DNA of 64,000 nucleotides, from the NCBI GenBank assembly GCA_964016885.1, contig OZ024753.1, positions 36,270,001-36,334,000 on the forward strand, in the 5' to 3' direction. The stretch is from Eledone cirrhosa (taxonomy: Eukaryota). The position numbers and the translations under genes were made by a program. Below are positions 13,254 through 52,819 of this stretch, one piece after another (the stretch's first letter is position 1; the number at the start of each line of letters is the position of its first letter). The notes beneath the pieces were generated by a model that was not told where the DNA came from, ran no database searches, and saw only the letters and a program-made list of their open reading frames with translations.

Positions 13254-13312
<59 letters not shown>

Positions 13313-13319
13313 TATATAT

Positions 13320-13508
13320 AACGAAGGAAATGTGGTAAGGAACCAGGTGGACCATAGCGCACCAAAGTACTCAATACTTAGGGTAGTAGAGTGGGTAATA
13401 GGAACGAGTGGGACCCCGACGACTGAGCTCAAGCAGTTTCGACGGCTAATTCAGTCCAGAATTAGCCGTCGAAACGGCTTGAGCTCAACCGTCGGGGTCC
13501 CACTCGTT

Positions 13509-13513
<5 letters not shown>
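13320..13513 (-). mobile_element. Family C TA-embedded fold-back element
   Basis: Homologous to 16321-16524, 49032-49180 and 62273-62341. Hairpin arms 13398-13452/13459-13513. (TA)n on both sides. Confidence 0.88.
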
Positions 13514-13570
<57 letters not shown>

Positions 13571-16320: not shown

Positions 16321-16519
16321 AACGAAGGAAATGTGGTAAGGAACCAGGTGGACCATAACGCACCAAAGTACTCAATACCTAGGATAGTAGAGTGGGTAAT
16401 AGGAACGAGTAGGACCCCGACGGCTGAGCCCAAGCCGCCTCGACGGCTAACTCTGGACTTTTTAGTCCAGAGTTAGCCGTCGAGGCGGCTTGGGTTTAGC
16501 CGTCGGGGTCCTACTCGTT

Positions 16520-21092: not shown

Positions 21093-21180
21093 ATTTTTAT
21101 GTTTTGCGATCACCTCCCCTTCCCGCTTGGTGACGGTGTGAGATTTCTCTTTGTGAGACTGTTGGAATTTCAAATTTGGC

Positions 21181-21551
21181 GGTCACTCTAACACTGACGG
21201 GTATCATTTATATCGATAGTGTTGGGCATCCACTGATGATTTATAAGTGCCCACCTGCATATATTCCTACATACTATGTGTAGGCTTCTACATAACCTGG
21301 ACATTATTTTCCCAACTTGTAGAAAACTTATAATGAAACGATCGTTTGGAAAGAGGATGTATTTAATTATGTCTCATATAAAATAATACAACTGGCTATC
21401 CGCAAAATACGTATAGTTAGCACCCCAAACGTATAATATATACTAAGTATAATATACTACGTATAATATACTAAGGGTATATCCTAATGTTTGTTGAGTG
21501 AGATGGAAGTCGGTCGGAGTATTGCTTAAAGCTTTCTCTGTTAATGTATTA
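21181..21551 (+). mobile_element. Family B hammerhead-bearing element with (TA)n 3' flank
   Basis: Near-identical inverted copy at 52443-52819. Both end ...TTAATGTATTA(TA)n. Confidence 0.9.
21229..21350 (+). ncRNA. Type I hammerhead ribozyme with long branched stem II (family B)
   Basis: TCCA CTGATGA T TTATAAGT...ACTTATAA T GAAA CGATCG TT TGGA. Stem I TCCA/TGGA, 8-bp stem II base, palindromic stem III. Predicted cut after 21346. Confidence 0.8.
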
Positions 21552-21552
21552 A

Positions 21553-21585
<33 letters not shown>

Positions 21586-37753: not shown

Positions 37754-37790
37754 TCTTAACGTTTCGGACGCTAGTCCTTCATCAGAAAAA
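37754..37790 (-). ncRNA. Minimal type I hammerhead ribozyme (family E)
   Basis: Minus strand reads TTTT CTGATGA A GGAC TAGC GTCC GAAACGTT AAGA. Perfect 4-bp stem II, palindromic ACGT stem III, stem I with one G-U. Confidence 0.82.
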
Positions 37791-52442: not shown

Positions 52443-52447
<5 letters not shown>

Positions 52448-52819
52448 CATTAACAGAGAAAGCTTTAAGCAATACTCCGACCGACTTCCGTCTCACTCAA
52501 CAAACATTAGGATATACCTTAGTATAATCCCAATTATACGTTTGGGGTGCTAACTATACGTATTTTGCGGATAGCCAGTTGTATTATTTTATATGAGACA
52601 TAATTAAATACATCCCTCTTTCCAAACGATCGTTTCATTATAAGTTTTCTACAAGTTGGGAAAATAATGTCCAGGTTATGTAGAAGCCTACACATAGTCT
52701 GTAGGAATATATGCAGGTGGGCACTTATAAATCATCAGTGGATGCCCAACAATATCGATATAAAAAAACCCTACCGATATTTACATTCAGCGATGGTATC
52801 CGTCAGTGTTAGAGTGACC
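52443..52819 (-). mobile_element. Family B element, TA on both sides
   Basis: Reverse complement of 21181-21551 with small indels. Confidence 0.9.
52621..52742 (-). ncRNA. Type I hammerhead ribozyme with long branched stem II (family B)
   Basis: Core and stems identical to 21229-21350. Confidence 0.8.

Follow-up and report, generated by a model that had tools for sequence, protein, structure and literature searches.

A candidate hammerhead ribozyme with a 95-nt three-way-junction stem II domain in a probably Penelope-dependent retroelement family of Eledone cirrhosa

The loop of stem II is where engineers attach aptamers to hammerhead ribozymes, and natural hammerheads are regarded as compact. 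The mammalian discontinuous Clec2 hammerhead has type III topology, with an insertion in loop 1. Its core halves, like those of the motif described here, are separated by a long insertion, but this measures several hundred nt and lies in an mRNA 3' UTR, and the summary of it in PMC6765202 mentions no conserved branched domain. Closer to our motif are the minimal hammerheads of Penelope-like elements (PLEs), which according to the main text of Cervera and de la Pena (2014, PMC4209133) are type I ribozymes with a helix II larger than usual (7-8 bp), a helix I of 4-5 bp and a short palindromic helix III suited to dimers, present in thousands of dispersed, mostly truncated copies; the same text states that in vivo evidence of their cleavage is lacking. 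Metazoan non-LTR retrozymes, as presented in the main text of Cervera and de la Pena (2020, PMC7229834), are non-coding, non-autonomous, tandem or partially tandem elements of about 300 nt with a GC content below 45% and a type I hammerhead with a canonical small loop 2, and they accumulate as circular RNA. The anole Poseidon element PAc is autonomous and has a compact hammerhead; it starts reverse transcription internally, downstream of the hammerhead, inserts at an AT-rich target and forms partial tandems, and its main text reports that no RNA reads end at the cleavage site (Frangieh et al., 2024, PMC11167929). Pseudoknotted hammerheads have short stems II, and about 40% of them use a stem I/stem II pseudoknot, as given in the main text of Perreault et al. 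(2011, PMC3088659).

The window analyzed here, a 64,000-nt stretch of the Eledone cirrhosa genome, holds two copies of a motif that shares features with each of these systems. We read it, with a probability of roughly 80%, as a type I hammerhead whose stem II bears a three-way-junction domain of 95 nt; its carrier, on this reading, is a non-autonomous, retrozyme-like element dependent on Penelope, and the ribozyme is attenuated in SF1, the subfamily of the window copies. By analogy, the element would work like the dimer-type PLE hammerheads (PMC4209133) in a carrier resembling the retrozymes (PMC7229834); it lies outside strict membership of both, because it has no ORF, its unit is over twice the retrozyme size and its loop 2 is non-canonical.

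On the plus strand, the 5' strand of stem I (21229-21232) forms 4 bp with 21347-50, including a U-A pair that is C-G in SF2, and leads into the core CUGAUGA (21233-39). The insert between the core halves (21240-21334, 95 nt) starts with position 10.1, a U that faces U21334, and the 5' strand of stem II (together 21240-21248), which forms an 8-bp helix (21241-48/21326-33). There follow the junction strand GCCCA (21249-21253), hairpin IIa (21254-21284; 10 bp, 21254-63/21275-84, with an 11-nt loop) and hairpin IIb (21286-21324; 7 bp, 21286-92/21318-24, with a 25-nt loop). The 3' strand of stem II, the U at position 11.1 and the core GAAA (21335-38) occupy 21326-21338, and palindromic stem III (palindrome 21338-45) plus a GUU triplet occupy 21338-21346, with predicted cleavage after U21346. 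The 3' strand of stem I and a 3' segment then extend to the fixed 3' end and into (TA)n (21347-21556). Upstream, a 5' leader UGGGC (21223-21227) is complementary to the junction strand, offering a candidate pseudoknot or an alternative pairing. The second copy has its ribozyme on the minus strand (52621-52742).

An earlier note on this DNA had proposed a hammerhead with a multibranched stem II, and the order of the core elements together with two-sided changes in the stems bears this out. Three helices surround the core, helix I being the open one. The note's core halves, 8-bp helix, hairpin IIb (TTCTACA/TGTAGAA), stem III palindrome, scissile site and second copy with the same architecture agree with our assignment. 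Its first inner hairpin, drawn with a 5' arm at 21266-73, does not stand: 3-4 of the 8 pairs fail in five of six subfamily consensuses, one of 8 fails even in the consensus of its own subfamily, and the fold is 2.6 kcal/mol worse than the alternative, which is the supported hairpin IIa.

The insert folds better than shuffled sequence (z -4.0; none of 200 shuffles as good). Stem III of the monomer comprises 2 bp and a tetraloop (helix III is 2-3 bp long across the subfamilies), and in a dimer it would become an 8-bp duplex predicted at -10 kcal/mol; the minimum-energy folds predicted for the monomer lack the active core. The triplet after CUGANGA...GAAA is GUU, GUC or GUA depending on the subfamily, in the NUH order expected of a hammerhead. 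As the note had anticipated, standard searches miss the motif: Rfam returned no hammerhead in a 461-nt region at E<=10, giving one unrelated weak match, and among the best 150 of 479 matches in the whole-window scan all were driven by microsatellites. No coding role was found for this region of the window.

With a helix II of 8 bp, a helix I of 4 bp and an 8-nt palindrome, the motif has the PLE minimal geometry. The note's premise that PLE hammerheads usually have a very short stem II is contradicted by the 7-8 bp of the published main text (PMC4209133); what is unusual here is the loop-2 domain. Unlike the elements in that text, the motif has a conserved three-way junction in place of loop 2, and its carrier has no ORF. 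In the main texts of the literature we found no natural hammerhead with a conserved branched stem II domain of ~95 nt; the supplementary alignments of PMC3088659, PMC4209133 and PMC8557442 could contain long-arm examples.

At least six subfamilies carry the branched-arm hammerhead. A split by eye of the first 100 of 1,561 matches, covering chromosome 1 only, gave 19 copies of SF1, 49 of SF2, 4 of SF3, 20 of SF4 and 6 of SF5, with 2 others; SF1 and SF2 units share 63% identity overall. Ribozyme identity between the two copies in the window is ~98%, so the second copy by itself says nothing about conservation, evidence of which comes instead from the diverged subfamilies. In the six subfamily consensuses all 12 core columns are invariant, and of the 46 other unpaired columns 25 vary. 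In a 12-sequence alignment, which represents about six related lineages, two-sided changes affect 8 of 38 pairs, of which stem II holds three (10.1-11.1 among them), IIa another three, and stem I and IIb one each. Altogether 96.9% of the alignment cells are paired, against 30-50% with slid partners, and RNAalifold independently finds stems I, II, IIa and IIb, the active core not being recovered. Two-sided changes account for 7 of 17 differences between subfamilies versus 7 of 153 copy changes within them (p 6e-5); the share of changes that merely keep pairing (12/17 between, 76/153 within) shows no significant excess (p 0.13). Relatives with an insert of 30-60 nt amount to five different singletons, so that no shortened lineage has amplified among those the pattern could see. 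These comparisons argue that the insert is under selection for structure. Hairpin IIa is imperfect in some subfamilies, forming 8 of 10 pairs in SF2 and 7 of 10 in SF5, where the helix appears chimeric.

The subfamilies also differ around the active site. The 10.1-11.1 pair is U·U in SF1, A-U in SF2, G-C in SF3 and SF5, and a G with a bulged U in SF4, so that SF2, SF3 and SF5 have the purine-pyrimidine pair and SF1 does not. The core-proximal U·U reported in the earlier note is therefore present at 21240/21334 but is not a family feature, since it is confined to SF1. Compared with the PLE hammerheads in the main text of PMC4209133, the conserved G10.1-C11.1 is replaced in SF1 and SF2, and the extra nucleotide between 9 and 10.1 is absent from SF1-3 and SF5; the extra U of SF4 follows the G. 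The triplet is GUU in SF1, GUC in SF2 and SF4, and GUA in SF3 and SF5. An identical palindrome is common to SF1, SF3, SF4b and SF5, is extended in SF2, and is kept by a two-sided change in SF4a, which fits the note's idea of dimeric cleavage.

The carrier is a non-coding, partially tandem retroelement of ~715 nt (range 700-770) that targets (TA)n, in a 3.0-Gb genome very rich in such tracts. A first look gave 3,024 candidates for this dispersed repeat, and the spaced intact core has 1,561 matches genome-wide, compared with 17 for the reversed control pattern. Units join head to tail, and in nine arrays, two of them of mixed subfamily composition, they repeat every 697-767 nt; one array (locus L054) has more than two units. 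The mixed arrays (L036, SF3 then SF1; L202, SF2, SF2, SF4) suggest template switching or insertion into existing copies. The longest ATG ORF is 58 aa in SF1 and 36 aa in SF2, and folded as a circle the unit reaches -178.5, against -148.7 +/- 6.2 for 20 mononucleotide shuffles. The 5' ends of copies vary, and the 3' end is fixed: (TA)n is entered 160-201 nt past the scissile bond in 90 of 105 copies, the 3' ends lying in AT-rich sequence that blends into the target. Both window copies are 5'-truncated SF1 copies and probably inert, truncated solitary insertions; one (21095-21556, plus strand) spans unit positions 249-715 with (TA)n on both flanks, the other (52443-52819, minus strand) unit positions 335-710.

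The element has no RT plus GIY-YIG ORF between pseudo-LTRs. It has the traits of a non-autonomous PLE, namely partial head-to-tail tandems, a fixed internal 3' end, 5' truncation and a microsatellite target, an arrangement like that in the main texts of PMC8557442 and PMC11167929, and the Penelope-like context assumed in the earlier note is supported by the first two and the (TA)n target. As in the retrozymes of PMC7229834, its GC content is below 45%; it differs from what that main text describes in its larger unit and strict (TA)n insertion. The family pattern has no match in metagenome or in viral contigs. Among contigs from the two runs compared, one that bears a second organism label covers the whole ribozyme and differs by 8 letters and 2 gaps, a divergence too small to inform covariation; ends do not pile up in these contigs. 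No public run is listed as a source of its RNA, a result that is uninformative on expression.

Reverse transcription of a cleaved RNA should leave insertions whose first base is the one that follows the scissile bond. Among the first 100 of 191 SF2 matches, 20 of 28 distinct loci start there, the first and second base being indistinguishable after a TA run. All 20 were fetched, and each runs on into the 3' part of the family with the upstream core absent; as two share a flank, 19 of 27 loci are independent (p 6e-12 against 2 of 16 positions). Genome-wide, the GUC subfamily gives 27 clean junctions at the scissile bond. A matched control, an internal TGGG site with the same starting bases, gave 0 clean and 2 ambiguous junctions over 13 loci. 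The peak at the scissile bond is 1-2 bases wide, with microhomology of only 1 nt. In SF3 and SF4, 8 of 19 loci start at the site, the SF3 cases being confounded by TA microhomology; SF4 alone gives 4 of 11 loci (p 0.04). The indirect cleavage signature read from these sequences looks strong in SF2, moderate in SF3/4 and not significant in SF1. We take the pile-up in the GUC subfamily as genomic evidence of cleavage in vivo, and the junctions would place cleavage by the family in the germline. At one locus (L283), the insertion starts at the scissile bond and runs beyond the 3' end typical of other copies, on into the following unit; its template would have been cut at one ribozyme and been longer than a 185-nt stub.

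In SF1, 3 of 17 loci (4 with one ambiguous) start at the site, which is not above uniform expectation over the full junction window (p 0.15-0.36). SF1 contributes 1 clean junction against about 10 expected (p 3e-4, its share being estimated from 100 matches), and on this count looks attenuated. The contrast with SF2 gives p 0.0007-0.002 on the full junction window and p 0.05-0.13 on a narrower one without microhomology-prone positions. The density of SF1 junctions is higher immediately 3' of the site than on its 5' side, which could reflect trimming or stalling. From its sequences, SF1 appears to cleave weakly or not at all, as an attenuated version of the ribozyme. GUU is a poor triplet. The U·U alone need not abolish cleavage, because U10.1·U11.1 occurs in natural hammerheads as the best-tolerated mismatch (main text of PMC3088659), and because the axolotl HHR_Amex2, which shares with SF1 the basal U·U of helix II and a helix III of 2 bp, is reported in the main text of PMC7229834 to reach 22% cleavage in monomeric form and a higher value as a dimer.

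A reading that we regard as less probable than attenuation holds that the family is real but SF1 dead through U·U and GUU, spreading via uncut multimeric RNA or being cut only in mixed dimers with active subfamilies. The single clean junction fits a dead SF1, as do the mixed arrays and the palindrome shared by SF1, SF3, SF4b and SF5, and in the main text of PMC11167929 ribozyme mutants of the anole element remain able to insert in vitro, uncut RNA being the main substrate. It is opposed by the intact core of the SF1 consensus, the 3-4 SF1 loci that begin at the site, the cleaving axolotl U·U ribozyme (PMC7229834) and the recurrence of GUU in other hammerhead families of this genome.

What the insert does is a matter of similar weighing. 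Leader and junction strand are complementary over 4-5 bp in all six subfamily consensuses (conservation p 0.08), no two-sided change in this pairing occurs in the 12-sequence alignment, and an alternative partner for the leader, the IIb loop, gives weaker pairing in each of the six. Because 9 bp separate the junction from the core and stem I has 4 bp, leader pairing may favor the inactive over the active fold. Compared with the pseudoknots in the main text of PMC3088659, the candidate pairing reaches a junction strand 9 bp from the core and shows no compensatory change. We give slightly less than even odds to the insert being a module that tunes the ribozyme through leader-junction pairing. 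A platform for the Penelope RT/endonuclease or for a host chaperone, whose binding turns the ribozyme on, is less probable. Stem II domains of about 90-97 nt recur in this family and in two autonomous families (D and E), variants with deletions show no amplification, and the anole Penelope hammerhead, whose ORF begins in stem II, cleaves only with its protein (main text of PMC11167929); yet D and E have rod-shaped arms in place of a three-way junction and give no match to the family model, and the protein-binding region inferred in that text falls within the ORF's first 172 nt, for the most part downstream of the ribozyme. Stubs without the domain are uninformative on the platform, because their template RNA may have held another copy. 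Slightly less likely again, the insert is tolerated compact bulk.

Similarly unlikely is the bolder reading of the stem II domain as a natural allosteric switch, in which leader-junction pairing or a junction-bound protein gates cleavage. Were it true, subfamilies would have been tuned up (SF2: GUC, A-U, longer helix III) or down (SF1: GUU, U·U), large-armed hammerheads would be a general, overlooked class in PLEs, and some clades reported to be hammerhead-less would carry ones too long for the descriptors used. The descriptor of PMC8557442 has a 7-17-nt spacer, and eight "half cores" 35-50 nt apart are noted there.

The observations suggest the following cycle. Tandem copies would be transcribed as multimers, and the ribozyme would cut after position 17, as the genomic junctions indicate for SF2 and more weakly for SF3/4, probably best as a double hammerhead formed through the palindrome. 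A Penelope-type RT/endonuclease acting in trans would nick (TA)n and, judging from the fixed 3' end, start reverse transcription inside the RNA ~185 nt past the cut. Run-off of the cDNA at the cleaved 5' end would yield the observed ~185-nt stubs beginning at the scissile bond, and read-through of an uncut or re-ligated site, on a circle or an uncut multimer, would yield the observed partial tandems. A circular RNA stage is thus conceivable. In having insertion junctions that mark the site, the family differs from PAc as described in the main text of PMC11167929.

DNA comparison with 47 loci that hold Penelope-type ORFs or matches, a small sample of the 10,596 first-look GIY-YIG candidates, revealed no autonomous partner, and neither did a covariance model over 58 sources. 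The end of family E matches SF3 weakly over 51 columns (2 of 300 shuffles as good, in one of 12 comparisons). Some ORFs at the GIY-YIG candidates reach 800-1,100 aa, and the genome is very rich in PLEs. Mobilization by a non-Penelope LINE instead of a PLE would accord with the lack of a sequence link to a Penelope-type ORF locus among the 47, and with a single clear 5'-to-5' inverted pair among 200 partly redundant loci, but the internal fixed 3' end, partial tandems, (TA)n target and hammerhead geometry are PLE-like by the main texts of PMC8557442, PMC4209133 and PMC11167929, and we consider a LINE improbable. Least probable of all is that the junction peak reflects RT stalling at structure or (TA)n microhomology over a fossil hammerhead in a structured SINE-like RNA: junctions elsewhere are clearly drawn to AT-rich microhomology and SF1 junctions are denser on the 3' side, but the peak spans one or two bases and involves a single nt of microhomology, the control site gave 0 of 13, and SF1, with the same stem I context, shows almost no peak.

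On the preferred reading of a cleaving, Penelope-dependent family, a conserved branched 95-nt domain departs from the compact picture of natural hammerheads, and its presence in >1,500 Rfam-invisible copies implies a length bias in genome-wide counts of ribozymes. The main texts of PMC4209133 and PMC11167929 had left open whether hammerheads of Penelope elements cleave in vivo, and the pile-up of 5' ends would be a base-resolution record of germline cleavage, readable from any assembly. Differences in triplet, 10.1-11.1 pair and helix III turn the subfamilies into a natural allelic series for which an in vivo read-out exists, so that the contribution of cleavage to Penelope transposition can be tested directly.

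Scanning the window and the fetched loci with a descriptor yielded 42 distinct matches, 26 of them outside the family, against 1 in reversed sequence, with 13-96 nt between the core halves. Families D and E have rod-like stems II of 90 and 91 nt, palindromic stems III and mismatched 10.1-11.1 positions, and they too end in (TA)n; long arms therefore recur. Family D (1,025 candidates) has the ribozyme downstream of an RT/GIY-YIG-type ORF in three of five loci. Family E (810 candidates, with 40 full-length matches 100% identical) forms a ribozyme-ORF-ribozyme unit of 3,564 nt at L277. Its ORF matched no Pfam family, and its Penelope-type identity comes from motifs recognized by eye, from a BLASTP match to an ORF with RT plus GIY-YIG (E 1e-5) and from Atlas neighbors (HTH_animal/GIY-YIG). 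DNA similarity, the covariance model and end comparisons established no sequence link between D or E and the present family. Family E (L192:804, L269-L277) looks like a very young autonomous PLE, with inverted 5'-truncated partners, two alternative 3' ends and GUC; family D (L037:720, L298-L302) is a sister autonomous element with GUU, whose basal stem II pairs differ two-sidedly from those of E, by eye.

Further families in the genome have arms of 36-103 nt. A 13-copy hammerhead with a 100-103-nt arm has a palindrome identical to ours (L304 and L305, minus strand, 1502). First read as the 3' repeat of a Neptune-type ORF at L304, it was rejected as a partner: that ORF is truncated, both fetched copies share flanks with a different ORF, which we take to be transposase-like, and the downstream segment is unlike that of our family. 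This hammerhead apparently lies inside a transposase-encoding element. Other hammerheads have a 50-52-nt stem II, a 10-nt palindromic stem III and GUU (L043, L055, L057, L126), or a 52-55-nt stem II of helix, internal loop and hairpin with GUA (window 43777, plus strand; L140:742; L185:2994). Hammerhead-like motifs occur with a 96-nt stem II (L224:759), with a 38-nt stem II in a 542-nt tandem (L112, minus strand, 118 and 660), and with about 30 nt between the core halves and AUA (window 53084 and 51749, plus strand, and 51653, minus strand), two of these copies forming an inverted pair. The window also holds compact type I hammerheads typical of PLEs at 37785 and 15600 (both minus strand), with a 13-14-nt stem II and a minimal palindromic stem III, as well as long perfect inverted repeats in (TA)n (16409-16514, 13308-13569 and similar), with related copies elsewhere in the window.
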